From Acaryochloris marina MBIC11017 (GTDB lineage: Bacteria; Cyanobacteriota; Cyanobacteriia; Thermosynechococcales; Thermosynechococcaceae), in the NCBI RefSeq assembly GCF_000018105.1, contig NC_009925.1, forward strand, positions 6,270,001 through 6,302,000: a stretch of 32,000 nt of DNA, read 5' to 3'. The translations under genes were made by a program, and so were the position numbers. The number at the start of each line of letters is the position of its first letter. The stretch's first letter is position 1. This document shows positions 11,710 through 31,097 of the stretch, in pieces. A model generated the notes under the pieces. It was not told where the DNA came from, ran no database searches, and saw nothing but the letters and a program-made list of their open reading frames with translations.

Positions 11710-12042
11710 ATGGCCTGGAGTGTTCAATATTATTCCGAAACAGTTGAATCTGAGGTACTTGCTCTGCCTCCAGGTTTGTTAGCTAGATATTTGAGGCTCA
11801 CCGACCTCATGTTAGAGTTTGGTCCCAATCTGGGGATGCCTCACACCCAATCCATGGGCGATCGCCTATTTGAATTGAGGGTAAAGAGCAAGGAAGGGAT
11901 TGCGAGGGTGTTTTATTGCACCCTGATCGGCGAAAGGATAGTGATGCTGCACAGCTTTGTGAAGAAGACTCAAAAGACCCCCAATCGTGAACTCAAGATC
12001 GCGCGTCGTCGGTTAAAAGAGGTGATAGACAATGACTCATGA
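11710..12042 (+). CDS. higB: Type II toxin, HigB / Gp49 (DUF891) RelE-fold family
   Basis: The 110-aa protein carries Gp49-like motifs (LRLTDLMLEFGPNLGMPHTQSMGDRLFELRVKSKEGIARVFYC...IVMLHSFVKKTQKTP). The toxin-first order and the 11-nt overlap with the downstream HTH gene fit a HigBA module. Confidence 0.85.
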   Translation: MAWSVQYYSETVESEVLALPPGLLARYLRLTDLMLEFGPNLGMPHTQSMGDRLFELRVKSKEGIARVFYCTLIGERIVMLHSFVKKTQKTPNRELKIARRRLKEVIDNDS

Positions 12043-12322
12043 GGATCTCAAAGCAAAAGCCCTAAACAATCCAGAAGTGGCTGAAGAGTACGAAAAACTA
12101 GAGGAAGAGTTTAGTCTTTTAAGGCAAATGCTTGCTGCCCGCCAGAATGCAGGTCTAACTCAAGCTGACATTGCTGAAAAAATGGGGACAAAGGCAACAG
12201 CAGTGACCCGGCTGGAATCATCCCTCAGTAGTGGTAAGCATTCACCATCCCTATCCACTTTGCGAAAGTATGCCAAGGCAGTGGGTTGCCGTTTAGAAGT
12301 GAAGTTAGTGCCAGAACAGTAG
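12032..12322 (+). CDS. higA: Type II antitoxin, XRE-family HTH (HigA-like)
   Basis: The 96-aa protein has an HTH (GLTQADIAEKMGTKATAVTRLES). Its position and overlap fit a HigA antitoxin. Confidence 0.85.
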   Translation: MTHEDLKAKALNNPEVAEEYEKLEEEFSLLRQMLAARQNAGLTQADIAEKMGTKATAVTRLESSLSSGKHSPSLSTLRKYAKAVGCRLEVKLVPEQ

Positions 12323-12468: not shown

Positions 12469-13389
12469 TTAGGAATTCTCGGGAGTTTGTTTGAGCATGT
12501 TCATTGCCATTTCCATACTTACCTTCAAACGGTTCACTGAAGCGGCTAGAACTCCGATTTCATCTTTTGATTTATGTTCAAAGTTAGAAACTAATGCCCC
12601 TGTGCTCACTCCCCGAGACCACTTGGACATATTTGTGATGGGTGAAATAATTGAAAACTTTAGAAACAAGTTGAGAATGATGGCGGCAACCATGAAACCA
12701 GCTGCCAAAATACTGATGACTAATACTTGCAATCGCCGAGCTTCTGCAATGACACTGCTCGCGGGTACGGAGATAATCTGGGCACCGACAATTTCATCTA
12801 ACTTCCAACCAAAACCACCATCACGTCCATAAGTTCTAATTTGACTGGCAGGTGCTCTATTTGGGGTACTATGACAGACCAAACAGCTTTCACTCTTGAT
12901 TTGCAGCGGTCTCGCAATATAAAACAGGTCACCAGCAGCAATTTTCCGAAAACCGGATTGCTCCTGTAAATCTGGCTGCCTACGGAATTTCTCAACAATT
13001 TTAGTTTCAAACTTATCTGCTTTGTCTGAGAGGGAAGTTGGATTTAACGTCGCTTCTCGGTAGAAAAAGTCACTGTATTTCTTGCGCCTTTGCAAATTAC
13101 TAAAAACTTCATTAGCAGAATATGCAGGAATACTCGTCTTGATAAACTGCCCATCAATTTCTAGATTTGGAGAGAGCGCTTTAATCGTGTCTTTGCTGAC
13201 CTGCTTGTTCGTATATTCTCGAACAGCAGTCATTGTTTCAATCAGCACTAAAGCTTTATCTTTGACCTCTTGTTCGGCATTCCTCTGCAATACACTAGAT
13301 AATAGCAAGCCATTCATTAAAATAATCACTAGAAAAACTGAAAGCAAAATTAGGTTTAATTTGACACCCAGTTTTAGATTTCGAATCAT
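12469..13389 (-). CDS. Tll0287-like (DUF3365) c-type-heme sensor domain protein with TM anchors and a C-terminal HAMP domain; no output domain
   Basis: The order is N-terminal TM, an extracytoplasmic DUF3365-like region with the heme-binding CxxCH motif CLVCH (12871-12885), a second TM, and a HAMP segment (DEIGVLAASVNRLKVSM). The ORF then ends. I place the start at ATG 13389 (MIRNLKLGVKLNLILL). The tracked ORF extends to 13476. Confidence 0.8.
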   Translation of the reverse strand: MIRNLKLGVKLNLILLSVFLVIILMNGLLLSSVLQRNAEQEVKDKALVLIETMTAVREYTNKQVSKDTIKALSPNLEIDGQFIKTSIPAYSANEVFSNLQRRKKYSDFFYREATLNPTSLSDKADKFETKIVEKFRRQPDLQEQSGFRKIAAGDLFYIARPLQIKSESCLVCHSTPNRAPASQIRTYGRDGGFGWKLDEIVGAQIISVPASSVIAEARRLQVLVISILAAGFMVAAIILNLFLKFSIISPITNMSKWSRGVSTGALVSNFEHKSKDEIGVLAASVNRLKVSMEMAMNMLKQTPENS

Positions 13390-13922
13390 TTCAGCACCTT
13401 TTAGCAAATAGAAAACCAAATATTTTTTCTGAATTAAGTTGAATGAATTCAGGCATTGACTCATACCAATAGTCATTAAAAACTATGAAATCTATGTACC
13501 CATTTAAACTTCAAGTATGGCTAGCTTGGGTGATATGCTTGCGAAATGCTTTAAAAGAATGATACAGACTATCTTTGTGGATAACTCGTATCATTCTTCA
13601 AGAACATAAACTAAGAACTCGAAGTATTTCTGGCTTAATTCATCAAATATTTGAATATCTTTTCAAGCTTATAGACATATAAAATAGAGCTTAAAGTTTA
13701 TATGCTATTTCATTTAATAGATTTTTAGTTCTATCTATTTATCAACTTACATTCCAATCATTATGTAGCCAGAAATATATCTTTATTCTTGATATTGAAA
13801 GAATTTACAAAGTCAATCACTTAGTAAAACAAGGGAAATATCTTTACTAAGTTAATCTTTGTTTTAAAGGGCATACTAAATTCATGCCGTCAGCCAATAT
13901 CAATCCTGCATAAATAGCAAGA

Positions 13923-13958
13923 TTTTAAAAGCCCAAAGATCCAGAAGAACTCTGGGCT
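13923..13958 (-). terminator. Rho-independent-type hairpin after RTX copy 1 (AGCCCAGAG-N11-CTTTGGGCT + UUU)
   Basis: The 9-bp stem (13930-13938 / 13950-13958, one G-U pair) is followed on the minus strand by TTTAAAA. It lies 8 nt after the stop of the frameshifted C-terminal segment (13966). Confidence 0.55.
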
Positions 13959-13965
13959 CAGAAAC

Positions 13966-15289
13966 TTAACTAACGTAATCAACGTAGCTAGAGTTGAGAC
14001 TAAAAGTTGTGTTGTTGGCAATAAAGGCAACCTGATCACCCACCCACGAGTTGTGTTCAATGGCATTAATAAAGGTACCGGTTACACCATTGACGGAACC
14101 AAGAGATAAGTAATATCCGCTACTGTTGCCATACAACTGAACGGTATCTTGGATATTGCTGAAATCTTCAATGTAGGCATAGATTACCGTTGGAGGTACT
14201 GGGGTTATCGTAGAATCGACCGCTGCTATCCCCTAACACAAATAGATCAAATCCATTTCCTCCATCTAAGGTATCTATGGAACCTACAGACTCGCCCATA
14301 GTCGCAGCGCCCCAAAGCGTATCATCGCCGTCACCGCCATCGAGATCGTCGTTACCGTAACCGCCGACTAATTGATCATTGCCCCCATCGCCGCGAAGAA
14401 AGTCATTACCATTCCGCCCCCATAGCCGATCTTCACCATCGCCACCATAGAGGTAATCAACGTGATAGTCCCAACCGCCATCTAGGCGATCATTGCCCGC
14501 TTCACCATAGAGGACATCGCTTCCATCCCCTCCATAAAGGTAGTCATTTCCTGTGCCACTGTACAAGAGATCTCCTCCATCATCACCGTAGAGCCAGTCA
14601 TTACCTGAGTCACTGTAAAGCTGATCATTATGGTCTCCTCCCCGGAGCGTGTCATTACCAGAACCGGCAAAAAGAGTATCAGTATCCGCTTCACCGCTTA
14701 GGTAATCATTGCCCGCTTGGCCATACAGACGATCCACTCCGCTCCCACCATAAAGGGAATCATTGTCTATTCCACCAAAGAGGGAATCATGATCAGTGCC
14801 ACCGTAAATGCGGTCTTTGCCAGCCCCGCCGTAAAGCATGTCGTTTCCAGACCCACCACTCAGGTAGTCATCACTATCTGCACTAGATTCAACAGTGTGG
14901 TCGTGATAACCATATAAGCTGTCATTGCCAGAGCCACCATACAGGCTATCTCTGCCAGCACCACCATTGAGAACATCATTGCCGGCTTCTCCATATAGCG
15001 TGTCGTCACCGATTCCACCATCCAGTGAATCATTGCCTGGCCCAGCATAGAGTTTGTCATTTCCTTTCCACCCAAAGAGAGAATCGTTTCCTGATCCGCC
15101 AGAAAGGACATCGTTGCCTCCAAGGCCAAATAGGCGATCATTTCCGCTACCGCCATAAAGGGTGTCGTCATCATCCCCTCCAATGAGGGTGTCGTTCCCT
15201 CCATAGCCATACATGAGCCATGGCTCATGCCCACTAGTAGCTTTTCCAAAATCGTCTTTGGTCGGGTCACCGTAGTAGTAGCGCGTCAT
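13966..15289 (-). pseudogene. RTX / hemolysin-type Ca2+-binding repeat protein, copy 1, frameshifted near 14180 (open part 14168-15289)
   Basis: The ORF carries dozens of GGxGxDxL nonapeptide repeats. Relative to copy 2 (AATCTAGATTATGCC), copy 1 reads AATCTATGCC, a 5-nt deletion, and this gives a premature TGA at 14168. The homologous C-terminal ~67 codons continue in another frame to the TAA at 13966 ([41 protein letters not shown]...SSYVDYVS). Confidence 0.7.
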
Positions 15290-15563: not shown

Positions 15564-16700
15564 TTAAACGACGTAATCGACGTAGCTTGAGTTTAGATCG
15601 AAGTTATTGGTGTTATTGGCAATAAAGGCGACCCGATCCCCTCCCCAAGAGCCAGGTTCAATCGCGTTAACAAAGGTGCCTGAAACACCATTAACTGAAC
15701 CGATAGACAGTGAATAGTCACTACTGCTTCCATTCAACTGAATGGTGTCTATTGTCCAGTTGAAATCTGCGATATAGGCATAATCTAGATTACCGTTGGA
15801 GGCACTGGGGTTATCGTAGAACCGACCCGTGCTATCCCCTAGCACAAACAGGTCATTCCCATTACCACCCGTTAAGGTATCGATGGAACCAATAGACTCG
15901 TTATTGGTGGCCGCACCCCAAAGCGTATCGTTGTCGTTACCCCCATTGAGGTTATCGTTGCCATAACCACCGATAAGCTGATCATGGCCATTATCACCTC
16001 TGAGATAGTCGTTGCCATACCGTCCCCACATGCGATCATTGCCTCTGCCACCATAGAGGTAATCGGCGTGATAGTCCCAACCACCATCTAAGATATCGTG
16101 ACCATCTTCGCCGTAAAGGAGATCTTCTCCATCACTGCCATAGAGGGAATCATTGCCAATGCCACCAAATAGGAAATCATTACCGGAAACACCGTAGAGG
16201 AAATCATTACCGGAACCACCGTAGAGTGAGTCTTCACCAAAGCCACCGCTGAGGGTATCGTTACCAGATTCGCCATACAAGAGATCGTCGCCCTTGTCGC
16301 CTCTTAATTCATCATTACCAGTACCACCGTACAGGGAATCATTATGATCGCCTCCATAAAGGGTGTCATTGCCATTACCCCCTTTTAGTAAGTCATTCCC
16401 TGCTCCACCACTTAGGTAGTCGTTACCACCCTGATGATAGGTGAGTCCTTGCGAGAAGCCATATAAGCTGTCATTGCCGGAGCCACCATAGAGAGTATCT
16501 TCATCAGCTCCACCCTCAAGGAGATCATTACCCGAACCACCATAGAGGGTATCTTCATCTCTGCCTCCTCTCAGAGTGTCATTGCCCCCGTAGCCATACA
16601 TTTTCCAAGATTCCCAGGTGTCAAACCACCAACTGCGCTTGGTTATTGTTGCTCTTTTGTAGTCGTCTTGATTTGGGTCGCCATAATAGTAACGAGTCAT
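15564..16700 (-). CDS. RTX / hemolysin-type Ca2+-binding repeat protein, copy 2 (intact)
   Basis: It has GGxGxD nonapeptide repeats throughout. The start is set at ATG 16700 (MTRYYYGDP, identical to the copy 1 N-terminus) with the SD AAAGGAGA. The 27-codon upstream extension in the ORF track is rejected. The C-terminal non-repeat domain is intact. Confidence 0.85.
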   Translation of the reverse strand: MTRYYYGDPNQDDYKRATITKRSWWFDTWESWKMYGYGGNDTLRGGRDEDTLYGGSGNDLLEGGADEDTLYGGSGNDSLYGFSQGLTYHQGGNDYLSGGAGNDLLKGGNGNDTLYGGDHNDSLYGGTGNDELRGDKGDDLLYGESGNDTLSGGFGEDSLYGGSGNDFLYGVSGNDFLFGGIGNDSLYGSDGEDLLYGEDGHDILDGGWDYHADYLYGGRGNDRMWGRYGNDYLRGDNGHDQLIGGYGNDNLNGGNDNDTLWGAATNNESIGSIDTLTGGNGNDLFVLGDSTGRFYDNPSASNGNLDYAYIADFNWTIDTIQLNGSSSDYSLSIGSVNGVSGTFVNAIEPGSWGGDRVAFIANNTNNFDLNSSYVDYVV

Positions 16701-16870
16701 AGTCAATCTCCTTTTGTTGAACGATAGGTTCAAAGTTTTTAGACAGCCACCACCATCCCAGCCCATACCGTGCAAGTGCATAGCTGGGATAGTTGCAGTT
16801 GAAAAGTTGTAATAGTCTTGGGGGAATCAACTAGGAATGCAGGTTACGTCCTCGGTAGGCCATAGACTGT
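16701..16870 (-). promoter_or_regulatory. Conserved leader/promoter region of RTX copy 2 (paralogous to 15290-15458)
   Basis: The same two conserved blocks occur at the same spacing from the ATG (16744-16762 and 16837-16852). Confidence 0.4.
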
Positions 16871-17320
16871 TCAGCGGACCTCCGCAGTGCTAGGGATGAT
16901 CCGGGTTCTGGAGTCAAGGGAAGAGAATGAACTGGATGTACCAACCTATATGAGCCACAATTTGGGATCACGCTGGTTGAACAGATATCACCTACTAAAA
17001 TCCAGCTCTAGTGCAAGTCTTACACTCTTATGTTCGAGGGAGTAATGATGGTTCTCCTGCAGTCTTGGTGCGTTTTCATTCCATAACTTCAATCTGCTTG
17101 AACCATCAAAATGACGCCACGTAAGATCACAACTTAAGCGCTCAACTTAAAGGCCAACTTAAACTAAATCTGCCAGAATTATTGAATTCACTGCGTTTCA
17201 GTTGTTGTGGGACCTTTAAGAAATAAGTTGAAATATCTTAACTTGGGCATGCAACATAACGACTAAGGTTATTTCCTTCATCAATGGACTGCAGACATGG
17301 TTGTGCTGGGAGTTTCAAGT

Positions 17321-17636
17321 ATTCGTTTTGGGCAGTTTTGATTCTAGAATGAGAAAAGAGTAAATCATCTGTGGCTGTGCTGGTATGCTGCAACACTGAT
17401 TGCCTGTATGACTAACCCCCAAAAGCCATCAAAACGAAGGCGGGGCGTTATTCTCACCGCAGCAGGTTGGCAACGGTTGCAAACCGCACAACAGCAATCA
17501 GAACTGACCCATAACGGTGGCAATCCTTATACCGTTGAGGACTTAAACGAACTCACTCATCTAAGTCGAAATACACTATCGAAGGTTAGGCTGCGCAAGA
17601 AACCGGTTGATCGACACACCTTAGAAGCCTACTTCA
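17321..17636 (+). repeat. 316-bp near-identical 5' module (87-bp leader + first 76 codons) of STAND/WD40 paralog 1; copy of 21656-21971
   Basis: Base-by-base comparison by eye finds 6 mismatches in 316 bp. Identity collapses after ...GCCTACTTCA. Confidence 0.95.
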
Positions 17637-20600
17637 CAACCTTTGGTCTCAACCTCACCCCAAAAGACTATAATCGAACCGCCTTAGAGCGAGCAGAAGC
17701 ACCAGAACAATTCGAGACAGAACCAGTCCCCCCACCTTCTAATCACCAAGATTGGGGGGAAGCCATTGATGTATCTATCTTTTATGGACGAACTACAGAG
17801 TTAGCAGCTCTAAAACAGTGGGTTGTAATTGATCGATACCGGCTGATTAGTATCTTTGGTATGGGGGGAATTGGCAAAACGGCACTATCTGTGAAGCTAG
17901 CCCAACTTGTACAGAGAGATTTTGACTATGTGATTTGGAGATCGCTCCGTAATGCTCCCACGATGGAATCGCTCCTCGGTGAACTGGTCCCATTTCTATC
18001 TCGTCACCAAACCACAGAACCAACCATTGGAAAACTATTGCAGTGTTTTAAGCAATCCCGATGTCTCGCGATTCTTGACAACGTGGAAACGATTTTGCAG
18101 AGCAATCGAAACGCTGGATATTTCCGTCCCAACTATGAACCCTATGGTGATCTACTCAGGGTTATTGGTGAAACGGATCATCAGAGCTGTTTGCTTCTTA
18201 CAAGTCGCGAGAAACCCGTTGAAATGGCTAAGTTCATAGGGTCGGAAGAAGCAGTAAGAACACTCTCCCTCAGCGGTTCTCTGGAAACCTCATTAGCCCT
18301 CATTGAAACTCAGGAATTAATTGGAACTCAAGACCATAAACAACAACTGTGTGAAGCCTGTGGTTGTAGTCCTCTAGCCCTAAAAATTACAGCTAGTTCT
18401 ATTCACGAATTATTTGATGGCAATATCGCTCAATTCCTTTTCGAGAAAACTATTGTTTTTAACGGAGTGCGTCGACTGCTAAATCAGCAATTTGAGCGTT
18501 TGTCAAGTCAGGAACGCAGCATTATGTATTGGCTAGCAATTAACCGTGAATGGACATCTATTTCAGAACTAGATGATGATTTGATCCCTAAGATTCCCCG
18601 TTCTCACTTGTTAGAGTCTTTGGAATCACTCTGTTGGCGTTCGCTAATTGAAAAGCGTTCTGGTAAATATACTCTTCAGCCAGTGGTGATGGAGTATATT
18701 ATTGGACAGTTAGTTGAACGAGTTTGTCAGGAATTAATTGAGTGGGAGATTGATATTTCTCTATCATCTTCCGAGCCTAATTTTTTGACGAAAACCTCTC
18801 TTTTTCATGTCCATGCTCTCCTTAAAACCAATGCCACAGATTACATTCGTGAGAGCCAAAAACGTCTGATTCTACAACCGATTGCTGAACAGATTCAACA
18901 AACTTTTAGCACACCTGCTTCATTAGAAAAGCACATCAAAGCTATCCTAGCGAGCTTACGCAGCAAATCACCTAAAGTCGGAGCCTATAGCAGTGGTAAC
19001 TTGCTTAATCTCTGTGGTCTTCTAAACCTAAATTTAGCAAATTACAATTTTTCTGGCCTGGATATCCGTCAGGCTTATCTTCCTGGTATTGACCTACCCA
19101 GGGTCAATTTTTCCAATGCTCATATCACATCCTCCATTTTTGCAGAGCCTTTGGGGGATATGCTGTGTGTTGCTTTCAGTCCAAATGGTCAAATGATTGC
19201 AACAGGAGACTCAAACGGTTTCTTGTCTGTGTGGCAAGCAAACACAGGCCAGAGGCTGCTGACGTGTCAAGGACATGCCGGATGGGTGATGTCAGTAGAT
19301 TTCAGTCCTGATGGAACGCTGTTGGCAAGTAGTAGTAATGATCAAGACATTCGACTTTGGGATGCTCATACAGGACAATGTCTAAAAATTTTACAGGGTC
19401 ATACCAACCTAGTGTGGTCAGTACGCTTTAATCCTGATGGGAAACATCTTGCCAGTGGGTGCCATGATCAAACGATCAAAGTGTGGAATGTTTCATCTGG
19501 AGAATGTTGTCACACCCTGCGAGCACACGCCAGTGGAGTTTTTGATGTTGTCTTTTGTATGGGAGGAAAAACCCTAGCCAGTAGCAGTATGGATTGCACG
19601 GTGAAACTTTGGGATTGGGCGAATGGGAGCACCCTAAAGACATTAGAAGGGCATACTGATGCAGTCCTCTCGCTTGCTTACAACACACTGGATCAAATTT
19701 TGGTGAGTGGCGGTCGTGATAAGACCATTCGGCTGTGGAATATAGAGACCGGAGACTGTTTACAGATTCTTCAAGGACATATCCATTGGATCTGGGGAGT
19801 CAGCGTGAGTCCCGATGGTCAAACCGTGGCGAGCAGCAGTAGCGATTGCAGTATCAAGCTGTGGGATGTAATCACAGGGCAATGCTTACAAACACTTTTA
19901 GGACATACCAGTGGCTTGTACGGTATCGCCTTTAGCCCAGATGGTCAACGCCTCACCAGTGGTAGCTCGGATCAAACGGTAAAGTTCTGGGATATTTCTA
20001 CAGGAAAAGTATTACGGACTGTGCAAGGACACACCCGACAAATTCATCAGGTTAGATCATTAGCTCTCAATGTCGATGGCCACACATTAGCTAGTAGCAG
20101 CGATCGCCAAATCATTCGGTTCTGGGATCTTCAGACAGGGAATTGTTCTCAGACTTTACAAGGGCATACTGGATGGATCTTTGGCATAGATCAAAGTCCT
20201 GACGGGCAGTGGCTAGCGAGTGCAGGTGGAGAAGATCAAACAATTAAAATTTGGGATGTTAAAACTGGCCAATGCGTTCAAAATTTGCAGGGGCATCTGG
20301 CTTGGGTGTTTGATGTTGCCTTTAACCCAGCCAGCCCTTCAGAATCGAATAAAACGTTATTGGCAAGCGGCAGCCAGGATCAAACCATCAAACTATGGGA
20401 TCTTGACCGCGGTGAATGCTTAAAGACACTATATGGGCACAGTCAAACAGTTTGGACTGTTGCTTTTAACCCCCAAGGAACGCTTCTAGCCAGTGGTGGG
20501 CAAGACCATACGGTGAAAGTATGGAATATACCAACAGGTTCCCTCCTTACAACTTTGCTGGGACATACCAATGAGGTATTGTCCGTCACCTTTAATCCTC

Positions 20601-21046
20601 AAGGGACAATCCTAGCAAGTGGTAGTCAGGATCAAAGCATTAAACTGTGGGATGTAGAGAGGGAACAGGCTCTAAAAACCATATCGCAACAAGAGATGGG
20701 GCATATTTGGACTCTGGCGTTCAGTCCAGATGGCCACCTCCTTGCTAGTGGGAGTGTGGACCATATGATTCGGTTGTGGGACATTCATACCGGTGAGAAT
20801 GTACAGACATTAAAAGGGCACACGAACTGGGTGCTTTCAGTCTGTTTTAACACCCAAGGAACAGTGTTAATCAGTGGCAGTGCCGATGCCACCATAAAGC
20901 TGTGGGACTTACACACAGGAGATTGCCTAGAAACTCTAAGACCCGATCGCCCCTATGAAGGTATGAATATTACTGGAGTTACGGGCTTAACTGAGGCCCA
21001 GAAATCCACACTTCAGAACTTGGGTGCCATGTCAAATGATAGTTAA
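17408..21046 (+). CDS. STAND P-loop NTPase (NACHT/NB-ARC-like) with N-terminal HTH-like module and 14 C-terminal WD40 repeats, paralog 1
   Basis: The 1212-aa protein starts with an N-terminal ~85-aa XRE-like HTH candidate ([36 protein letters not shown]). Walker A is GMGGIGKT (aa 151-158) and Walker B is CLAILDN. A helical linker follows. I count 14 units of the type LASGSxDxT[IV][KR]LW[DN] (about 19165-20940), which would make two 7-bladed propellers. The conserved tail is [25 protein letters not shown]. Confidence 0.9.
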
Positions 21047-21059
21047 GTTTAATCTCTTA

Positions 21060-21651
21060 CAACTCATTTCGGGTTTTTATCCAGTTGACCTGAAATATCA
21101 GCTTTTTAAGCTAAAATGAACAACAAAGAAAGAAGAAAAAGGGAATTTAATCATTCCTCTTTGATTATTCACCTCATGATTCCGTTTTCTATGCATGACA
21201 ATCTGGATCTCAGTTACAGAGACCTCTAGAATTTATAGATTTCAAGTTGAGACTAACTTTGGCAAAAATGCCGAAGATTGATCATCGTGTATGCCAAGCT
21301 TTTCAAGGCTGAGATGTTGCACCAAGGGTCCTGCCTATGAGAAAAGGGCGTGCAGTTATATCCAGAAACAAGCATGCCAAAACACATCCTTGCCCACGCC
21401 CAAGGGCTAGTCTACAACCTTTGGTTGAGGTTCCCGACTGCCGATGTGCAAATGGGGCAAGACAAATGTCTCAAACTGCTCAAGAGTTAAGAATGTTGGA
21501 ATCCATTTATGGGACTTAGTTTGAGGCATCTGCACTCCTAACGAACGGTAAACTAAATGACTGGCGTCATTTAAGTCTTTAATGATGGAAGGCCATGCAG
21601 GGTATGGGTTTTAAGTGATCTGAACCATGGAATAAAACCCGAAATGAGTTG
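21060..21651. mobile_element. IS-derived remnant / MITE-like element bounded by 18-bp inverted repeats CAACTCATTTCGGGTTTT
   Basis: The left IR is 21060-21077. The right IR, 21634-21651, is its exact reverse complement. The ~590-bp interior holds only a 40-codon transposase-like N-terminal fragment. The element starts 14 bp after the paralog 1 stop and ends 4 bp before the duplicated leader begins. No clear TSD was found. Confidence 0.45.
21407..21529 (-). pseudogene. Possible N-terminal fragment of an IS4/IS5-type (DUF4096-like) transposase
   Basis: The 40-codon ORF MPQTKSHKWIPTFLTLEQFETFVLPHLHIGSREPQPKVVD* resembles, from memory only, the N-termini of cyanobacterial IS5-like transposases (...FxxFVLPHLxxGxRGP...). 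The downstream frames are broken. Confidence 0.3.
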
Positions 21652-21655
21652 AAGG

Positions 21656-21971
21656 ATTCGTTTTGGGCAGTTTTGATTCTAGAATGAGACCAGAGTAAAT
21701 CATCTGTGGCTGTGCTGGTATGCTGCAACACTGATTGCCTGTATGACTAACCCCCAAAAGCCATCAAAACGAAGGCGGGGTGCTATTCTCACCGCAGCAG
21801 GTTGGCAACGGTTGCAAACCGCACAACAACAATCAGAACTGACTCATAACGGTGGCAATCCTTATACCGTTGAGGACTTAAACGAACTCACTCATCTAAG
21901 TCGAAATACACTATCGAAGGTTAGGCTGCGCAAGAAACCGGTTGATCGACACACCTTAGAAGCCTACTTCA
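21656..21971 (+). repeat. 316-bp near-identical 5' module of STAND/WD40 paralog 2; copy of 17321-17636
   Basis: See 17321-17636. Confidence 0.95.
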
Positions 21972-24900
21972 ACACTTTCGGCCTCACTCTCCGTGCCGAA
22001 GATTATAGCCAAAGCACCACAGATGGAGAGAAAATTCCCAAACTAGCACAAACATCTAAGAGCCCTCTAATTTCTAACCGACAAGATTGGGGTGAAGCAA
22101 TTGATGTATCTATCTTTCATGGGCGTAATGAAGAACTGTCAATACTCAATCAGTGGCTAAGGCAAGAACGATGTCGTCTCATCAGCATCCTTGGCATAGG
22201 CGGGATCGGCAAAACAGCACTTTCAGTTAAGTTAGCCCAACAACTTCAGCATGAATTTGAGTACATAATCTGGCGTTCGTTACGCAATGCCCCTAACCTA
22301 GAAACCCTTCTTGAAGAACTCGTACCTTTCCTGTCTACAGATCAGGACACCAAAACTGATACGCTTCACTTTCTCAAATGTTTGCAAAAGTCTCGCTGTC
22401 TAGTGATTCTAGACAACTTGGAGACAATTTTACAACCGGGAGGCCAAGCTGGATATTATCGCCCAGGTTATGAAAATTATGGTGATCTACTAAGAATAAT
22501 CGGGGAATCTAGCCATAAAAGCTGTTTTATCATCACGAGTCGGGAGAAACCTGCTGAAATTGCAGTGTTTGAGACTATAGAGTTTCCCGTTCGATCTCTT
22601 CAGCTGAGCGGCTCATTAGAAACAGCTTTGGCTTTGGTTGATACAAAGGACTTACTCGGAACTGTTCAGAACAAAAAGGACCTGTGTGAATCCTATGGGT
22701 GCAGCCCTTTGGCACTCAAGATTGTCACTAGTACGATTAAAGACTTATTTGGAGGGGACATTGCCCAGTTTCTAGCAGAGGAGACAATTGTCTTTAATGG
22801 AGTGCGTCGTTTATTAGATCAACAATTTGAGCGCCTAACTGAGCTTGAGCGCACTCTTATGTATTGGCTCGCGATCAACCGTGACTGGACTTCGATTTCA
22901 GAACTCGTCACTGATTTGGTGCCAAATGTCCCTCGGTCCAAACTGTTGGAATCCCTGGAATCGTTAAGTTGGCGTTCTTTGATTGAAAAACAACCAGGCA
23001 AATATACACAACAGCCTGTAGTGATGGAATATGCGACTGAATCGTTGACTCAGCAGGTTGTATCAGAGCTCATGACTCAATCCTTTTCAAGATTTACCCA
23101 CCATGCCCTGCTCAAAACTTCAGTCAAGGAATTTGTCCGTAATAGTCAATGCCGACTGATATTAGATCCTGTCCTTCATGCGCTTAAAACGGAACTACGA
23201 TCTCCTTCCGCGTTGGCAAAGCATTTGCAAGCCGTACTATCGACATTACGGCAAAATCAAGATTACCGATTGAGCTATGCCGGGGGTAATGTGTTGAACT
23301 TATGTCGTCAAGGCCAGCTTGACATCAAAGGCTTCGACTTTTCACAACTGGCCATTTGGCATGCCTTTCTACAAGATGTTGAACTCCAGCAAACCAATTT
23401 CACTGAGGCTGAATTTTCAAATGCTAGCTTTGCTCAAACCTTTAGCAGCATTTTATCGTTGGCGTTTAGCCCTGATGGTCAACTGCTAGCTGCATCTGAC
23501 ACCAATGGAGAATGCCACTTGTGGGACGTTGCAGATGGTCAACTCCTCTTAACACTTCCCGGAGTGGATTGGGTACGATCAGTCGCCTTTAATACTAATG
23601 GCAAGCTGTTGGCCAGTGGAGGGGATGACTACAAGATTGTATTCTGGGATATCCAAACTGGGCAGTGCCTCAAAACCCTACAAGAACATACCGGTCGTGT
23701 CTGCGCTCTCATGTTCAGCCCCAATGGTCAGGCTTTGGTGAGCAGTAGTGAAGATCAAACCATACGTTTGTGGGAAGTGAACAGTGGCGAGTGCTGCGCG
23801 ATAATGTCTGGCCATACCCAACAGATATGGTCTGTTCAATTCGATCCAGAAGGCAAGCGGTTAGTCAGTGGGGGAGAAGATAAAACCGTTAAAATCTGGG
23901 ATGTACAGACCGGACAATGTCTCAACACTTTTACAGGACATACCAATTGGATTGGGTCTGTTGCCTTTAGCCCAGATGGGCAACTGGTGGGTAGTGCCAG
24001 TCATGATCAAACCATTCGTTTGTGGAACGCTCAGACCGGTGAATGCCTCCAAATCCTTAAGGGGCACACCAATTGGATTTGGTCAATTGCTTTTAGTCCA
24101 GATGGACAAATGCTGGCTAGCGGCAGTGAGGATCATACGGTTCGCCTTTGGAATGTTCATACAGGTGAGTGTTTGAAAGTTCTTACTGGACACACTCATC
24201 GAGTGTGGTCTGTTGTGTTCAGTCCCGATCAATCGATGCTGGCAAGCGGGGGTGAGGATCAGACTATACGATTATGGGAAATGTCCCGATTGGTTTCTGA
24301 AGAGTATTCTGCTGATAGTCGCACATCCCAGCTACATTGGCCTCTCTCAGCTCGATGTTTGCGAACCTTACAAGGCCATACCAACCAAGTTTGGGGGATC
24401 GCGTTTAGCCCCGATGGTCAGCGTTTAGCCAGTGTCGGAGACGAGAAGTTTATTAGGATCTGGCACACCGAAACTAGGATATGTAACCAAATTTTAGTAG
24501 GACATACTCGCCGGATCAGTTCCGTTGATTGGAGTCCAGATGGTGTCACCTTGGCTAGTGGTGGTGAAGATCAAACAGTTCGACTCTGGGATATTAAGAC
24601 TGGAAGTTGCTTGAAAATCTTGAGTGGACACACCAAGCAAATTTGGTCAGTCGCTTTTAGCCCAGATGGTGCCATTCTTGCGAGTGGGGGCGAGGATCAG
24701 ACGATCAAACTGTGGCTGGTTGATAGACAAGATTGTGTCAAAACAATGGAAGGTCATAAGAACTGGGTCTGGTCTCTGGATTTCAACCCTGTCAACTCCT
24801 TATTGGCAAGTGGTAGCTTTGACCATACTGTTAAGCTCTGGGATATCGAAACGGGGGATTGCGTTAGAACATTGGAAGGGCATCAAGGATGGATTATGGG

Positions 24901-25375
24901 CGTAGCTTTCAGCCCTGATGGTCAGCTTCTTGCGAGTGGGAGTCCTTACGATAAAACCATACGGATATGGGAGGTGCTTACCGGAAAGTGCCTAGAAATC
25001 TTGCCTGAACAATCTGCATATTGTTTAGCCTTTTCTTCTCCACTTAGAGCACCATCCTCCGAGCAAGATGCCATCCTTGCTATCGGCGGATTAGATCAGA
25101 CCATAAAGCTTTGGAATACTAACACAAAAAAAATTACTTGCTTACCAACTTTACATAAGCGTTGGATCTTTGACATCGCCTTTAGTCCTGATTGTCAGAC
25201 CATTGCTAGTGGAAGTGCCGACGCAACTGTGAAGCTGTGGGATGTCAGTGAAAGAGCCTGTCTCAATACACTCAGACCACATCGACCTTATGAAGGTATG
25301 AACATCACTGGGATAACAGGTTTGACCGAGGCTCAAAAATCTACACTTATGGATTTGGGGGCAATCGCGAATTAA
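21743..25375 (+). CDS. STAND P-loop NTPase (NACHT/NB-ARC-like) with N-terminal HTH-like module and 14 C-terminal WD40 repeats, paralog 2
   Basis: The 1210-aa protein has the same architecture and register as paralog 1. Walker A is GIGGIGKT at aa 151-158, Walker B is CLVILDN, there are 14 WD40 units (about 23450-25270), and the tail [25 protein letters not shown] starts at codon 1178 in both. The first 76 aa differ from paralog 1 at one residue. Confidence 0.9.
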
Positions 25376-25503
25376 AATTACTGACGAAATAGATGATTTA
25401 CTCTTGCAGGCCACTATATTAAGCAGCGATTTCTATTCCAGATTTGTCTCTCACAACATCAAAACTACTTTTCAAACCCTTGACCCTTACAGTAAGGATA
25501 TTT

Positions 25504-25694: not shown

Positions 25695-27824
25695 ATGAAA
25701 CGGAAATGGCATCCAGAAGAGCTGATTGAGCATTGGTCCATCCAGCCCGATGAAGCACATCTATTGGCTAGGCGTAAAGGCGTTACTCTTTTAGGATTTG
25801 TCCTGCTGCTTAAATTTTTCCAATATGAAGGACGTTTCCCCGAACAGAAGTATGAGATTCCTCGCATGGCGATAACTTTTGTGGCAGAGCAGTTAGACTT
25901 GCCGCCAGAGCAGTTTCAAGACTATAAGTGGCGAGGGAGAGTCGTTAAATATCACCGGGCCCAGATTCGCCAATTTACTGGATTTCGACAAGCCACTCTT
26001 TCAGATCAAAATCAGCTACGTACTTGGTTAGTCGATACAGTCCTGAGTCAAGAGCAGGATTACCATCATCTGAAATTGAAAGTCTATGCTCAACTGCGTA
26101 CTCTTCAGATTGAACCACCCACCCCTGCTAGAATTGAGCGTTTAATCCGGTCCGCTCAGCGTCGGTTTGAGCGTCAGCTTTTTTCCTCAACCCTCAAGCA
26201 GCTGTCCAAGCAAACTCAGACTGAGCTTGATGAATTGATCCAAGAACCCAAAGTGACGCCGGGTAAAGAGATACCAGATCCGCCCCTGAGTGCCTTAAAA
26301 AAAGATCCTGGACCCGTGGGTCTCAATAGCCTGCTTTCAGAAATCATCAAGCTCCAACGCCTCCGCCAAGTGGCTTTGCCAGATACCTTGTTTTCTCATC
26401 TGACCCCACGAGTTCTGGAGTGTTATCGGCTCCGAGTGGAGACAGAAACCTTATCAGAGTTGAGGCATCACCCCAAAACCATCCGACTCACCTTACTCGC
26501 GAGTTTCTGTTGGCAGCGGTGCCAAGAGATTATCGACAACATCATGGATTTATTGATTCAGATCGTTCATCGCATTGATACACGCAGCAAGAATAAAGTG
26601 ACGTCAGAGGTGATCGCTAAAGTCAAAAAAACCGACTCTCATACCCAGCTGTTTTATCAGGTGGCCACCGCAGCCCTGGCCACACCAGATGGCTTGGTCA
26701 GAAATGTTATCTACCCCGTTGCTAGTGAGCAAACTCTGGAAGCATTTGTTGACTCCTACAATGATGGCGGTCAGACTTACCGACAACTTCTACACTCGAG
26801 GATCCGTTCTTCCTACGGTCATCATTATCGGCAAATGCTTCCTGCGGTACTGGAAGTGATTGACTTTCGGTGCAATAACAAGCAATACCAGCCCATCCTC
26901 CAGGCTGTGGATTTACTCAAAGCCTATGTGGACACCCCCCGAAAACCTTATGCCTCAGCAGACGACGTTCCCATCGAAGGGGTCGTTAGTGCAGACTGGC
27001 AAGAGACGGTATTGGGTCAGGATGAAGACCAGCCAGACAAAGTAGATCGCATCGCCTATGAGATGTGCGTCCTCAGGGCCCTGCGAGAGAAACTACGGTG
27101 TAAGGAAATTTGGGTCGCCGGTGCCAATCGCTATCGAAACCCCGACCTGGATTTACCCCAAGACTTTGACGAGCGGCGAGAGGAATATTACCAGGATCTA
27201 CAACAGCCCCTAGAGGTGGAAACCTTCATCGCTCAAATCCAGGCTGATATGGAAAACGCCTTGACCCGTTTAAATCAGGGGATGCCTCACAACTCCAAAG
27301 TTGAGATCTTGAGTAAGCGTGGAGGACGAATTAAGGTATCCCCGCTTGAGGCTCAACCGGAACCCATGAACATTCACAAGCTCAAGGAAGAGATCAACCA
27401 GCGGTGGTCATTAACGCATTTGTTGGACGTCCTCAAAGAGGCAGACTTTCGGATTGATTTCACCCAGCATTTCAAGAGTGCGGCTAGTCGTGAAATATTG
27501 AGCCCCCAGTCCCTGCGCAAGCGCCTACTGTTGTGTATTTACGGACTGGGCACCAATTTAGGAATTAAGCGCATCGCTCATTCAGAAGCCGATGCAGGAT
27601 ACTTTGAATTGCATTATGTCCGACGCAAGTTTTTAAGCAAGACAGCTCTCAGCTGTGCGATTACGGATGTGGCCAATGCGATTTTCCGGATTCGCCTTTC
27701 TCATATCTGGGGGGAAGCCACCACGGCTTGTGCGTCTGATTCTCGGCACTTTGAATCTTGGGACCAGAATTTGATGACGGAATGGCATGTTCGCTATGGC
27801 GGCCGGGGGGTGATGATCTACTGG
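25695..27824 (+). CDS. tnpA: Tn3-family transposase TnpA, exon 1 (codons 1-710)
   Basis: The N-terminus is DUF4158-like (WSIQPDEAHLLARRKGVTLLGFVLLLKFFQYEGRFP). The long helical middle and the start of the DDE domain (ACASDSRHFESWDQNL...RYGGRGVMIYW) follow. The reading frame then runs into intron sequence (VRFVG*) right after codon 710. Confidence 0.9.
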
Positions 27825-28453
27825 GTGCGATTCGTTGGCTAGAAACTAGACCTGAATAGGGTTTGAGGGGATTAGCCGCAAGCGTAAAGAAGGGGAAAAT
27901 ATCCCAACTGTACCTTGACAACTTAATAGCCATATAGGTGAGAGTCAGTATCCTAGACCGCTCTAGTCCTATCCCGCAGGTGCAGCGGTGACAGCATTTC
28001 CCCCAGGTTCGCGACTAGCCATCAACGCCTGAAGCGGGGAAAAAAGGAGGTAACAGGGAGCCTAGCTCTGAACCCCTTCGAGCAAGAACTTATGAGTAGC
28101 GAAAGCGAAGATGTGGTTAACCCACCGTAATCATTAACCAGCGAAATTAGGTTGATAACGCTGGGAGTCCCAAAAGGGCAAGGATATACGGAGCTGGCGT
28201 GTCCAGTAGCGACCAGTTAGCACTTCCAATAAACCCGGTGGAGCGCATCACTCTAACAGTTCAATCAATGGCTATTAGGAACGAAGTAACCCCCGCCTAT
28301 CTCTCTTGGAGGTCGATTGGCTAAGAGTAGGTGCTAACCAGAAGTTAGGCGGTGGGAAGGATTGGGTCAAAAGCAAAAGCCCCACTGTAATGGTGAGGAT
28401 AAGCAGACAGACTCACGGTGACTTGGAATGAATAGGAACAAGTAGCAATAAAT

Positions 28454-30184
28454 ATGTCTAAAGCACGGGTCAAACCGATGATGGAATGGAGCGCAATCCC
28501 CTGGCCAAAACTAGAGCGGAAAGTGTTTAAGTTGCAAAAGCGCATATTCAGAGCCAGACAACGTGGCGATGTCAAAGTAGTACATAGACTCCAGAAAACT
28601 CTGATGAGGTCCTGGTCAGCCAAATGCCTTTCAGTTAGACGGGTCACACAAGACAACCAGGGAAAAAAGACGGCAGGTGTGGATGGAGTTAAATCTCTGT
28701 CCCCAGAAGCTCGTCTGCCCCTAGTGGGTCAACTTAAACTCGGCTCAAAGGCCCCTCCCACCAGACGGGTGTGGATTCCTAAACCAGGAAAAGACGAACA
28801 ACGTCCTTTGGGTATACCGACCCTGTATGAAAGGGCAAGAATGACACTAGTCAAACTAGCCCTGGAACCTGAATGGGAAGCGGTTTTCGAACCAAACTCC
28901 TATGGTTCAAGACCAGGCCGTTCATGTCATGACGCGATAGAACAAATTTTTGCAGCCATTAAACAGAAAGCAAAATATGTGTTGGACGCTGATATAGCCC
29001 AATGTTTTGACCGAATAAACCACGAAGCACTGCTCAAAAAGCTGAAGACCTTTCCCACTCTACGCCGACAAATAAAAACTTGGCTAAAAGCTGGGGTAAT
29101 TGATGGTCATCAGTTCTTACAGACATCTGAAGGAGCACCTCAAGGGGGGACTATCTCTCCTTTGTTGGCAAATGTAGCCCTCCATGGCCTAGAGTATCGA
29201 ATCAAGCAAGCCTTTCCTATCAGAAAGATTGCCGACGGGAATAAGCGAAAAAGAATTGCTACTCCTGATGTCATTCGATACTGTGATGACTTCGTGATTC
29301 TTCACGAGGATTTATCCGTAGTTCAAAGATGTCAGAGCTTAGTTCATGAGTGGCTAAAAGACATGGGGTTGGAACTAAAACCTAGCAAAACGCATATATC
29401 CCATACTCTCAAAAGGTATGAAGCTGAAAACCCTGGATTTGATTTTCTAGGATTCTCAGTTAGACAATTCCCGGTCGGTCAACATCAATCGGGGAGATTA
29501 TGCGGGACATTGCTGGGATTTAAGACCATCATTACCCCCAGTCGAAAGAAGCAAAAAGTACATTACAATCGGCTCGTTAGTATCATCAACGCCCATAAGG
29601 CAGCGCCGCAAGCGGCATTAATCCGCCACCTCAATCCCGTGATTAGAGGATGGACGAGATATTATTCGACCATGGCTAGTAAAGAGACCTTCTCCCGTCT
29701 AGACCATTTACTGTATCAAAAGCTTCAAACATGGGCTAACCACCGCCATCCTGGCAAATCCAGGAAATGGGTGGTGAATAAATATTGGCAAACTGTCGGG
29801 GGAGATAAATGGGTCTTCGCGACTAGAGTAACTAAATCTAGAACCGAAAAATTACTCAAACATCGACAGACTCCAATTATCCGCCATGTCAAAGTCAAGG
29901 GGGATGCAAGTCCCTACAATGGCAATCTAGTTTACTGGAGTTCAAGGACTGGGAAGCATCCAGAAGCTCCGAAGAGAGTATCTATGCTCTTGAAGAAGCA
30001 GAAGGGGAAATGCGCTCAGTGCGGCATGTTCTTCCGAGAAGAAGATTTACTTGAAGTGGATCACATTCTCCCTACATCAATGGGAGGATTGGACGTATAC
30101 AAGAATCTTCAACTACTACACAGACATTGTCATTATGTTAAAACGGCCAAGGAGAAGTCCTCTCAGGCCAAATGGTATGTATGA
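28454..30184 (+). CDS. Group II intron-encoded protein: reverse transcriptase + maturase (X) + HNH endonuclease domains
   Basis: The 576-aa protein has RT blocks (RRVWIPKPGKDEQRPLGIPTLYERA, APQGGTISPLLANVAL, and YCDDFVIL as the YxDD box). The maturase motif is RGWTRYY. The C-terminal HNH region is CAQCG...VDHILPTSMGG...LLHRHCH. Confidence 0.95.
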   Translation: MSKARVKPMMEWSAIPWPKLERKVFKLQKRIFRARQRGDVKVVHRLQKTLMRSWSAKCLSVRRVTQDNQGKKTAGVDGVKSLSPEARLPLVGQLKLGSKAPPTRRVWIPKPGKDEQRPLGIPTLYERARMTLVKLALEPEWEAVFEPNSYGSRPGRSCHDAIEQIFAAIKQKAKYVLDADIAQCFDRINHEALLKKLKTFPTLRRQIKTWLKAGVIDGHQFLQTSEGAPQGGTISPLLANVALHGLEYRIKQAFPIRKIADGNKRKRIATPDVIRYCDDFVILHEDLSVVQRCQSLVHEWLKDMGLELKPSKTHISHTLKRYEAENPGFDFLGFSVRQFPVGQHQSGRLCGTLLGFKTIITPSRKKQKVHYNRLVSIINAHKAAPQAALIRHLNPVIRGWTRYYSTMASKETFSRLDHLLYQKLQTWANHRHPGKSRKWVVNKYWQTVGGDKWVFATRVTKSRTEKLLKHRQTPIIRHVKVKGDASPYNGNLVYWSSRTGKHPEAPKRVSMLLKKQKGKCAQCGMFFREEDLLEVDHILPTSMGGLDVYKNLQLLHRHCHYVKTAKEKSSQAKWYV

Positions 30185-30203
30185 CAAGCACCAAGCCACT
30201 GAG

Positions 30204-30237
30204 GAGCCGTGTAAATCGAAAGATTTACGCACGGTTT
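30204..30237 (+). ncRNA. Group II intron domain V (catalytic hairpin)
   Basis: The sequence is GAGCCGTGTAAATC-GAAA-GATTTACGCACGGTTT. It has the AGC triad near its 5' end, a GAAA tetraloop and a 2-nt bulge on the 3' arm, which is the canonical 34-nt DV geometry. Confidence 0.85.
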
Positions 30238-30278
30238 TGAAGCCAAGTCGGAGGAGTGATCCTCCGGCTTAGGTTAAC

Positions 30279-31097
30279 CATGTCGAGAAAAAATCCGTGT
30301 GTATCTACTCGCAACTGAAGAAGTGTTCTTCCTCGGAGGTGGCCTTTATGGTGAAGGGCGTACTTCGCCACTGTACGCAAATGTCCGTGAATAAAAGCTA
30401 TGTGGATACCCATGGCCAAAGCGAGGTGGGGTTTGCCTTTTGCTATTTGCTGAACTTTCAGCTGATGCCCCGCTTCAAGGGCATCAACAAGCAGAAGCTC
30501 TATTTACCGATGTCCGGGCAGAAGAAGAAGTATGTCTATCTCAAGGCGATTGTGAAGCGCCCCATGCGTTGGGATCTGGTGCGGGAGCAATATGAGCCAA
30601 TGATCCAGTTCACCACCGCAATGAAGCAAGGGACCGCCGAACCTGAAGCGATTCTGAGTCGGTTCACTCGCAACAACATTAAGCACCCCACCTATCTTGC
30701 TTTGGCTGAATTAGGCCGAGCTATCAAGACCATTTTCCTGTGCCAGTATTTGCACGATGAAGCCTTACGGCAAGAGATCAATGAAGGTTTGAATGTGATT
30801 GAAAATTGGAATAGTGCCAATGACTTCATCTTCTATGGCAAGAATGGTGACTTTGCCAGTAATCAAACGGCGATGCAAGAGCTGTCCATGCTTTGCCTGC
30901 ACCTACTGCAAATCAGCCTGGTTTACATCAATACTCTAATGATTCAAAAAGTACTTTCTGAACCCACGTGGATGAATCGTATGCAGGAAGAAGATTTGAG
31001 GGCGTTAACGCCGTTGTTTTACCTTCATATCAATCCTTATGGACGTTTCCGCCTCAACATGAATGAGCGTCTGGTGATTGAAAACTTGGCTGCGTAG
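30279..31097 (+). CDS. tnpA: Tn3-family transposase TnpA, exon 2 (272 codons + stop)
   Basis: Exon 2 starts HVEKKSVCIYSQLKKCSSSEVAFMVKGVLRHCT...SYVDTHGQSEVGFAFCYLLNFQLMPRFKGI. This aligns with the classical Tn3 TnpA segment ...YTHISDQYAPFHTKVI...[30 protein letters not shown], which holds the second catalytic D. It is in frame with exon 1 and with the tracked ORF 30297-31097. Confidence 0.9.
   Translation, partial: HVEKKSVCIYSQLKKCSSSEVAFMVKGVLRHCTQMSVNKSYVDTHGQSEVGFAFCYLLNFQLMPRFKGINKQKLYLPMSGQKKKYVYLKAIVKRPMRWDLVREQYEPMIQFTTAMKQGTAEPEAILSRFTRNNIKHPTYLALAELGRAIKTIFLCQYLHDEALRQEINEGLNVIENWNSANDFIFYGKNGDFASNQTAMQELSMLCLHLLQISLVYINTLMIQKVLSEPTWMNRMQEEDLRALTPLFYLHINPYGRFRLNMNERLVIENLAA

Follow-up and report, generated by a model that had tools for sequence, protein, structure and literature searches.

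In MalT of Escherichia coli and GutR of Bacillus subtilis, an inducer binds to the sensor arm of the protein, and ATP-dependent self-association then licenses DNA binding. AfsR of Streptomyces coelicolor, an experimentally proven transcription activator with the domain order SARP-NOD-TPR, is held in check by its own NOD (nucleotide-binding oligomerization domain) and its TPR sensor, which inhibit the DNA-binding head until ATP binds (PMC10936776). Two adjacent genes, here called A and B, in a 32,000-nucleotide stretch of the chromosome of the cyanobacterium Acaryochloris marina MBIC11017 (the whole of this stretch is hereafter called the window) encode proteins that carry all three elements of the layout seen in AfsR, MalT and GutR, namely a DNA-binding head, a NOD and a repeat sensor. 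By analogy with these systems, we hold with moderate confidence that A and B are most likely ligand-gated STAND transcription regulators that act in a signal-dependent manner, rather than a new phage-defense system.

The likeness to AfsR extends to the order of the parts, since both begin with a DNA-binding head at the N terminus, continue with an NB-ARC-type NOD and end in a repeat sensor, and heads of the SARP/BTAD type occur within the very NOD clade to which A belongs. The AfsR head, however, is an OmpR-type winged helix-turn-helix (HTH) joined to BTAD, whereas that of A and B is an XRE-type HTH, and AfsR senses with TPRs where A and B have 14 WD40 blades, a pentapeptide-like linker and a conserved tail. 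A and B are proposed to follow the same logic as MalT and GutR. MalT, however, belongs to another STAND clade, bears a LuxR-type HTH at its C terminus and has small molecules as ligands, whereas the usual partners of WD40 propellers are proteins or peptides. Another close counterpart is Apaf-1, which places two WD40 propellers behind an NB-ARC NOD, shares with A and B the P-loop GMGGxGKT, the TSR/TTR sensor-1 and the GxP motif, and has its closest bacterial homologs in cyanobacteria (PMC13581612). Where A and B have an HTH, the N-terminal domain of Apaf-1 is a CARD and that of its relatives in bacteria is a caspase-like protease; moreover, the A/B family has MEY at the position that we read as the MHD motif.

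Gene A (17408..21046, plus strand; ABW31152.1, 1212 amino acids) and gene B (21743..25375, plus strand; ABW31155.1, 1210 amino acids) are co-oriented on the 6.50-Mb chromosome, and BLASTP aligns their products from end to end, in a single register, at 53% identity. An earlier note on this DNA had described two co-oriented open reading frames (ORFs) of these lengths with one architecture, and the ORFs, the alignment register and the motifs all agree with that description; its start coordinate, 17321, falls inside a leader common to both genes that begins at 17314. The genes are not new to the databases, where they stand in GenBank as NB-ARC and WD40 domain proteins under the labels ‘WD-repeat protein’, ‘NB-ARC domain-containing protein’ and ‘WD40 domain-containing protein’, while relatives have been named by JGI ‘transcriptional regulator with XRE-family HTH domain / WD40 repeat protein’. 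Both belong to a large family that is already recognized and annotated.

Architecture of proteins A and B

The N-terminal module of both proteins spans about 90 residues and is followed by a low-complexity linker that leads to the NB-ARC domain. Codons 1-76, at 17408..17635 in gene A and 21743..21970 in gene B (both plus strand), encode a basic arm (KRRRG) and an XRE/Cro-type HTH module. An alignment of 34 family sequences yields the pattern R-x-R-G-V-I-L-[ST]-x2-G ... Y-T-L-E-x-L-S-E-x-T-G-L-S-x2-T-x2-K-V ... V-D-K-x-T-L-E-x2-F-x-A-F-x-L-x-L-x3-D-Y. When each of these sequences was scanned singly against Pfam, 24 of the 34 matched HTH_26 (Cro/C1), nine matched HTH_3 (best E = 4.7e-6) and nine matched HTH_31. 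The best profile match of the module in the PDB is an HTH protein, 3pxp, at E = 0.02. Neither this head nor the alternative heads of the family described below received a name from NCBIfam, and a word-index search for homologs of the isolated module (101 residues) returned no matches.

In an AlphaFold2 model (pLDDT, the predicted local distance difference test, of 81.9) the four helices of the module stand between a short strand and a closing one. Comparison with the PDB by Foldseek returned XRE-type HTH domains as most of the best 50 matches (probability 0.8-0.96, TM 0.4-0.6, E of about 0.1), among them HigA2, C.Esp1396I, ClgR, HipB, DdrO and Stl, which are XRE-family repressors and antitoxins. 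Residues ~18-80 share the fold of the XRE/Cro-C1 repressors and antitoxins (HigA, HipB, C.Esp1396I, ClgR), which provide the best structural matches. The A/B module differs in two respects: it has an additional basic arm at its N terminus, together with a beta-strand (R12-G13-V-I-L) paired in the model with a strand at residues 88-90, and it is fused to a signaling body of 1100 residues rather than being free-standing. The earlier note had left open the choice among an HTH, a death-like adaptor and a novel fold; on the profile matches across the family and the predicted fold, the module is an XRE/Cro-type HTH with an N-terminal basic arm, and neither a death-like adaptor nor a new fold. These matches also sustain the prediction made there that the module is HTH-like and that the output would be transcriptional. 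Furthermore, Pfam scanning detected no enzymatic domain anywhere in A or B, and residues 1-120 match HTH only, in accord with the observation that the pair has no recognizable enzymatic effector.

The ATPase that follows (residues ~115-470 of A, 17750..18817; residues ~115-455 of B, 22085..23107; both plus strand) is a STAND NTPase of the NB-ARC/AP-ATPase clade by profile score and by motifs. Between NACHT and NB-ARC, which had likewise been left to further analysis, the scores decide for the latter: the Pfam NB-ARC model (PF00931) gives 38.4 bits with A and 35.8 bits with B, above its gathering cut-off of 23.5, whereas the NACHT model (PF05729) gives 22.8 and 26.1 bits, just under its cut-off of 26.7. 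The sole sequence match in the PDB is the NB-ARC domain protein 9h2l (E = 5.7e-6). Walker A lies at residues 151-158 in both proteins (GMGGIGKT in A, GIGGIGKT in B), and A further has the Walker B ILDNVE at residues 222-227 (ILD224), the sensor-1 TSR with R267, and the GxP motif CSPLAL (P322). Across an alignment of 18 sequences, G151, G154, G156, K157, D224 and R267 do not vary, and P322 is nearly invariant. The winged-helix residues M428-E429-Y430 are also invariant in this alignment, and we tentatively read them as occupying the MHD position.

Each protein ends in 14 WD40 blades (residues 581-1175 of A, 19148..20932; residues 566-1175 of B, 23438..25267; both plus strand) and a conserved tail, with blade 8 of B holding a 20-residue insertion. 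Pfam recognizes 14 WD40 stretches for A and 13 for B, and a motif count gives 13 plus the first blade, making 14 in each. AlphaFold2 models the blades of A as two propellers with high confidence (pLDDT above 90). Poorly modeled (pLDDT 35-63) are the short pentapeptide-repeat-like linker that precedes the propellers (residues ~526-580 of A, 18983..19147, plus strand), which gives a sub-threshold match to the Pfam Pentapeptide model, and the tail (residues 1176-1212 of A, 20933..21043; residues 1176-1210 of B, 25268..25372; both plus strand), whose conserved part begins at R1178 of both proteins when the two are aligned. The motifs, Pfam and the alignment thus agree with the earlier note on the position of Walker A, the number of blades and the start of the tail.

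Four relatives are devoid of WD40 repeats, and in these the pentapeptide-like linker is joined straight to the YEGMNITG...LGA tail. This arrangement suggests that the propeller array was inserted into what is otherwise one small pentapeptide-repeat unit. The linker and the tail may accordingly be parts that pack together, possibly as a clasp around the propellers.

Interchangeable heads and the predicted output

Residues 1-560 of protein A match more than 3,500 proteins, and all of those that carry a source organism name are cyanobacterial. The best outside identity is 55-57%, and complete relatives have about 1200 residues and the same HTH-NB-ARC-WD40 architecture. Besides being widespread on cyanobacterial chromosomes, the family is found on 42 plasmids of cyanobacteria, among them plasmids of Synechocystis 6803 and Nostoc 7120 and three from Acaryochloris, and there are no homologs in 50,697 phage records. 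A genome scan gave more than 546 loci, of which 80, all cyanobacterial, were retained for the analysis of gene neighborhoods.

We assigned head types by regular-expression motifs over 195 NODs. The A/B module, here called XRE1, is present on 82 of these; 76 have a PF26355-type head (motif L-S-D-V-E...T-Y-E-Q-I-A...G-P-K-L-W-K), 12 a second XRE type (XRE2), and three a BTAD/SARP head. By eye, the PF26355-type head is reminiscent of sigma-70 region 4 or LuxR, and fusions of sigma70_r4 to NB-ARC and WD40 domains in cyanobacteria are noted in one published survey (PMC11119718). The BTAD/SARP-headed relatives are 50-56% identical to A, fall in its own NOD clade, and bear the source name ‘DNA-binding SARP family transcriptional activator’. 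We take each of the four heads to be a DNA-binding module, with database support for three of them only: XRE1 through Pfam and fold, SARP/BTAD through precomputed Pfam assignments and source names, and XRE2 through JGI names. Head swaps clearly occur across the family, and the finding that interchangeable DNA-binding heads sit on one NOD-WD40 body is the strongest argument that the N terminus is a transcriptional output.

Two conserved neighbors bear on how the genes are inherited. In a Nostocales subfamily that has the same head and is 43-44% identical to A, 16 genomes drawn from several genera have, 0.5-4 kb downstream, a convergent gene for a Haem_oxygenas_2-like protein of ~290 residues (iron-containing redox enzyme). 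A gene for a secreted cupin of ~180 residues is located near the STAND gene at four loci that represent the closest outside relatives of A (in Xenococcaceae metagenome-assembled genomes (MAGs), an unclassified cyanobacterial MAG and Mastigocoleus testarum), and at three of them it is upstream and on the opposite strand. Such syntenic neighbors argue for vertical inheritance rather than defense-island turnover, and the arrangement preserved in 16 genomes fits a vertically inherited regulator.

On these grounds we propose that the proteins have four working parts, with the HTH and its basic arm as the output, the NB-ARC domain as a switch, the pentapeptide-like linker, and two seven-bladed WD40 propellers as the sensor. 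By analogy with AfsR, MalT, GutR and Apaf-1, the ADP-bound NOD and the propellers would keep the HTH head inactive at rest. The propellers would be the docking site of a ligand, which is probably either a protein or a peptide, and nucleotide exchange would then favor an ATP-bound, self-associating state. The HTH heads, freed or clustered in this state, would bind operator DNA and thereby alter the transcription of target genes. If the members of this family are indeed ligand-gated transcription factors, then they would represent a large and unexplored layer of cyanobacterial signaling, as well as a natural case of STAND switches that couple protein-binding propellers to a DNA-binding output.

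The N-terminal module is also found outside this family. A profile search run exhaustively over 1.84 billion representatives located it in 746 clusters, and we read its domain contexts in the best 147 of these matches. It is followed by an NB-ARC NOD in at least 59 of the 147 and by an AAA_35 (PF14516) ATPase in at least 16, and in a few the modules stand in tandem or a canonical HTH_3 precedes the module. Five AAA_35-linked proteins include one with a guanylate-cyclase domain, one with two AAA_35 units, and one in which the module comes after the ATPase. One complete protein of 276 residues consists of the module and an unknown C-terminal domain, without an NTPase, and looks like a one-component regulator in its layout. 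Another candidate, a short protein (P0185) that appeared to be a stand-alone module, was rejected as a contig-end fragment; it was the only such short match checked.

This promiscuity invites the alternative, raised in the earlier note, that the module is an adaptor, a homotypic interaction domain of the effector-associated or death-like kind found in conflict systems, which would recruit a separately encoded effector bearing the same module. A domain that heads AAA_35 ATPases, one of them with a guanylate-cyclase, that occurs in tandem copies, and that is held near-identical between A and B would suit this role. Several results nonetheless make it highly improbable. Profile and fold searches group the module with XRE DNA-binding domains, its fold matching those of repressors and antitoxins, and no fusion to a nuclease, to a protease, to TIR or to a comparable domain was seen among the best 147 representatives. 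The earlier note had suggested a search for partner effectors among the neighbors of homologs; every module-bearing ORF in the 80 loci also carries a NOD (a NOD-less ORF with the module occurs at none of them), and the one short match checked as a free-standing module is the fragment just mentioned.

A converted leader and head in two old paralogs

A near-identical tract runs from 17314 to ~17636 at gene A and from 21649 to ~21971 at gene B. It comprises a 94-nt leader (17314..17407 and 21649..21742, both plus strand) and codons 1-76, and its edges are sharp on both sides. The tract, ~320 bp in length, is 98% identical (97% for 17314-17613 versus 21649-21948), whereas later segments are 72-74% identical, and the spacer between the genes (21047..21648), which holds only short ORFs, shows no resemblance to what lies upstream of gene A. 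Within codons 1-76 the two proteins differ at one residue, V14A (A14 in B), and dS is 0.056, whereas elsewhere pS is ~0.8 (saturated).

Outside codons 1-76, the similarity between A and B is no greater than that to proteins of other genera. The body of B is closest to a cyanobacterial relative (L007/P0032), with 69% identity in the NOD and 65% in the WD40 region, and in a neighbor-joining tree A is the sister of a clade that holds B and three foreign proteins. The simplest reading of these comparisons is that A and B are old paralogs, derived from an ancient duplication or juxtaposition, and that their leader and head were afterwards subject to a recent gene conversion. We also considered that B, whose body is closest to L007/P0032, which carry PF26355-type heads, acquired a foreign head from A. 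This scenario is not favored: the tree puts B in a small clade in which three of five members, B included, carry XRE1, which makes homogenization of an XRE1 head already present in the ancestor more parsimonious than a swap.

A second A. marina strain provides a further constraint. Its gene A is intact, with one substitution, and its homolog of gene B (BDM79854.1) is annotated with only 242 residues, which are identical to the first 242 of B. Gene B is thus dispensable in at least one strain. Since the 242-residue version carries the same sequence, including A14, the conversion is older than the split of the two sequenced strains.

The sensors present the opposite picture to the heads. Between A and B, blades at matching positions are 47% identical, versus 44% at non-matching positions, and the most variable columns lie directly after the GH dipeptide and ahead of the WD dipeptide. 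Saturation of synonymous sites makes dN/dS on the A and B blades not computable, and the closest outside relative, at 65% identity, is expected to be saturated too. The earlier note had proposed that the sensor halves diverged while the N-terminal module was homogenized, and the segment identities, the dS and pS values and the blade comparison all bear this out. The locus is a clean example of receptor evolution, in which head swapping across the family is combined with local homogenization of head and leader while the sensors are kept different; the conversion tract and the head swapping are its most instructive features. Because the HTH modules are the same except for V14A, A and B should recognize the same DNA sites in response to different ligands, each through a sensor of its own.

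A perfect palindrome of 10 bp, ATTCTAGAAT, is present in the converted leader, 67 nt upstream of both ATGs (17341-17350 and 21676-21685). It is found nowhere else in the window, and the two copies count as one observation because both lie inside the converted tract.

Genes that are adjacent and co-oriented, with near-identical N-terminal modules and leaders, might be expected to function together, as in the paired nucleotide-binding leucine-rich repeat receptors (NLRs) of plants. Under such a sensor-helper arrangement, A and B would work only as a hetero-oligomer, with one sensing and the other signaling. We assign this possibility a very small chance. A second family member is present within 10 kb on either side at only six of the 80 loci, and the other 74 are single-copy; tandem co-oriented pairs were seen elsewhere at one locus in which both heads are of the PF26355 type and at another in which both are XRE1, and tandem duplication thus recurs in the family but is not the rule. 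In the second strain, gene A persists with one residue changed while gene B is reduced to 242 residues. A 700-bp spacer with terminator-like hairpins separates the two coding regions. Finally, neither protein looks like a degenerate helper, because Walker A, Walker B and sensor-1 are all complete in both, as are the propellers. With most loci single-copy, B truncated in the sister strain, and A and B not mutual closest relatives outside the tract, the functional pair suggested by the earlier note is not supported. We take the two genes to be independent transcription units and not an obligate two-gene system.

Regulation, defense and the surroundings of the genes

Several observations weigh against the reading of A and B as ligand-gated transcription regulators. 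The HTH_26 score of A itself, 16.2-16.9 bits, is under the Pfam cut-off of 22, and the Foldseek E-values of the module are only ~0.1 because the domain is short (~65 aligned residues). No conserved operator-like inverted repeat is apparent upstream of 44 related genes (mean arm 5.34 versus 5.22 in shuffled sequences), no target gene for an A/B regulator is evident, and the literature that we searched holds no functional study of any member of this widespread family of HTH-NB-ARC-WD40 proteins. HTH domains are listed among the domains in effector position of conflict systems (Kaur et al. 2020, PMC7159879). Moreover, A and B lie in a setting of mobile elements, and such genes are found on many plasmids, are multi-copy and strain-variable, and have strongly diverged sensor surfaces, all of which is also typical of immune receptors.

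These traits could point to NLR-like antiphage sensors of the Avs/bNACHT kind, which is how the earlier note had framed the locus. The propellers would see a phage protein, the NB-ARC domain would oligomerize, and the clustered HTH heads would serve as the effector; as variants, the heads might block replication or transcription through non-productive DNA binding, or might switch on defense genes. The layout of an N-terminal module, a STAND NTPase and a C-terminal repeat sensor is that of known bacterial immune receptors, cyanobacterial Apaf-1-like WD40 sensors sit in defense-associated clades (PMC13581612), and conflict systems do place HTH domains in the effector position (PMC7159879). At this locus, the flanking mobile elements, the truncation of B to 242 residues in the sister strain and the divergence of the blades (47% identity at matching versus 44% at non-matching positions) are compatible with such a role, as are the 42 plasmids that carry family members.

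Taken together, however, the evidence makes antiphage function, in any of these variants, unlikely. Unlike Avs and bNACHT proteins, A and B have no nuclease, protease, TIR or SIR2 effector, and their NACHT scores are under the cut-off. PADLOC gives no specific family for either protein, only a WD40-driven match to HEAT-ARM_XIII and, for gene B, a weak match to PDC-S27 (E = 0.0065). Ten neighbors submitted to PADLOC contain no defense system beyond a generic toxin-antitoxin pair, matching only through the HTH of that pair and the intron reverse transcriptase, and no enzymatic effector is encoded in cis or in any of the 80 neighborhoods. Sister proteins bear SARP heads typical of pathway activators, and a survey of STAND proteins (Nature 2026, PMC13581612) places transcription regulators in non-defense clades that are interspersed with defense clades. 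Homologs that are core and syntenic had been named in the earlier note as an argument against defense, and this is found in part: one Nostocales subfamily keeps its syntenic neighbor in 16 genomes. With the phage records also devoid of homologs, our analysis gives no positive evidence that A and B are a new defense system; as an instance of one the finding fails on present evidence, and the idea of an HTH with a transcriptional output is supported instead.

A further reading would liken the family to the transcription-factor NLRs of animals, CIITA and NLRC5, and make its members intracellular pattern-recognition receptors. The propellers would sense a protein that comes from an invader or from stress, and the output would be a defense or stress regulon rather than killing, with conversion of heads and leaders keeping both A. 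marina genes on one regulon. We consider such a bacterial counterpart improbable.

The mobile-element-rich setting described in the earlier note is plainly there. Upstream of gene A are an integrase (6955-7962), an ISL3 transposase (9564-10808) and a Gp49/HTH_3 toxin-antitoxin pair (11710-12322). Downstream of gene B, a Tn3-family transposase gene (25695-31097) is split by a group II intron: the first part (25695-27842) encodes DUF4158 and the start of the DDE domain, and the second (30297-31097) encodes the rest of the DDE domain. The intron ORF (28454-30184) encodes an RT-maturase-HNH protein, and the Rfam Intron_gpII match lies at 30202-30278. In the spacer between genes A and B, a short ORF on the minus strand (21407-21535; TLEQFETFVLPHLHIGSREPQPK) resembles by eye the N terminus of a transposase, which fits the ‘IS remnant’ of the earlier note.

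Divergent from gene A are two RTX / HemolysinCabind repeat genes (14168-15289 and 15564-16781, both minus strand), which are paralogous and 53% identical. RTX-like proteins are encoded near the STAND gene in five of 81 neighborhoods (the window and four of the 80 loci), and are directly divergent from it in three of these, the window and two others. By a rough estimate this excess is marginal, because such repeat proteins are abundant in cyanobacteria, and the RTX genes are a weak lead as possible targets of A and B.

Two minor features lie farther upstream. A minus-strand gene at 12469-13476 encodes a protein of 335 residues with Tll0287-like and HAMP domains but no output domain, which may be a truncated sensor. 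It adjoins an AT-rich stretch (13001-14000), where the GC content of 0.325 is the minimum of the window.

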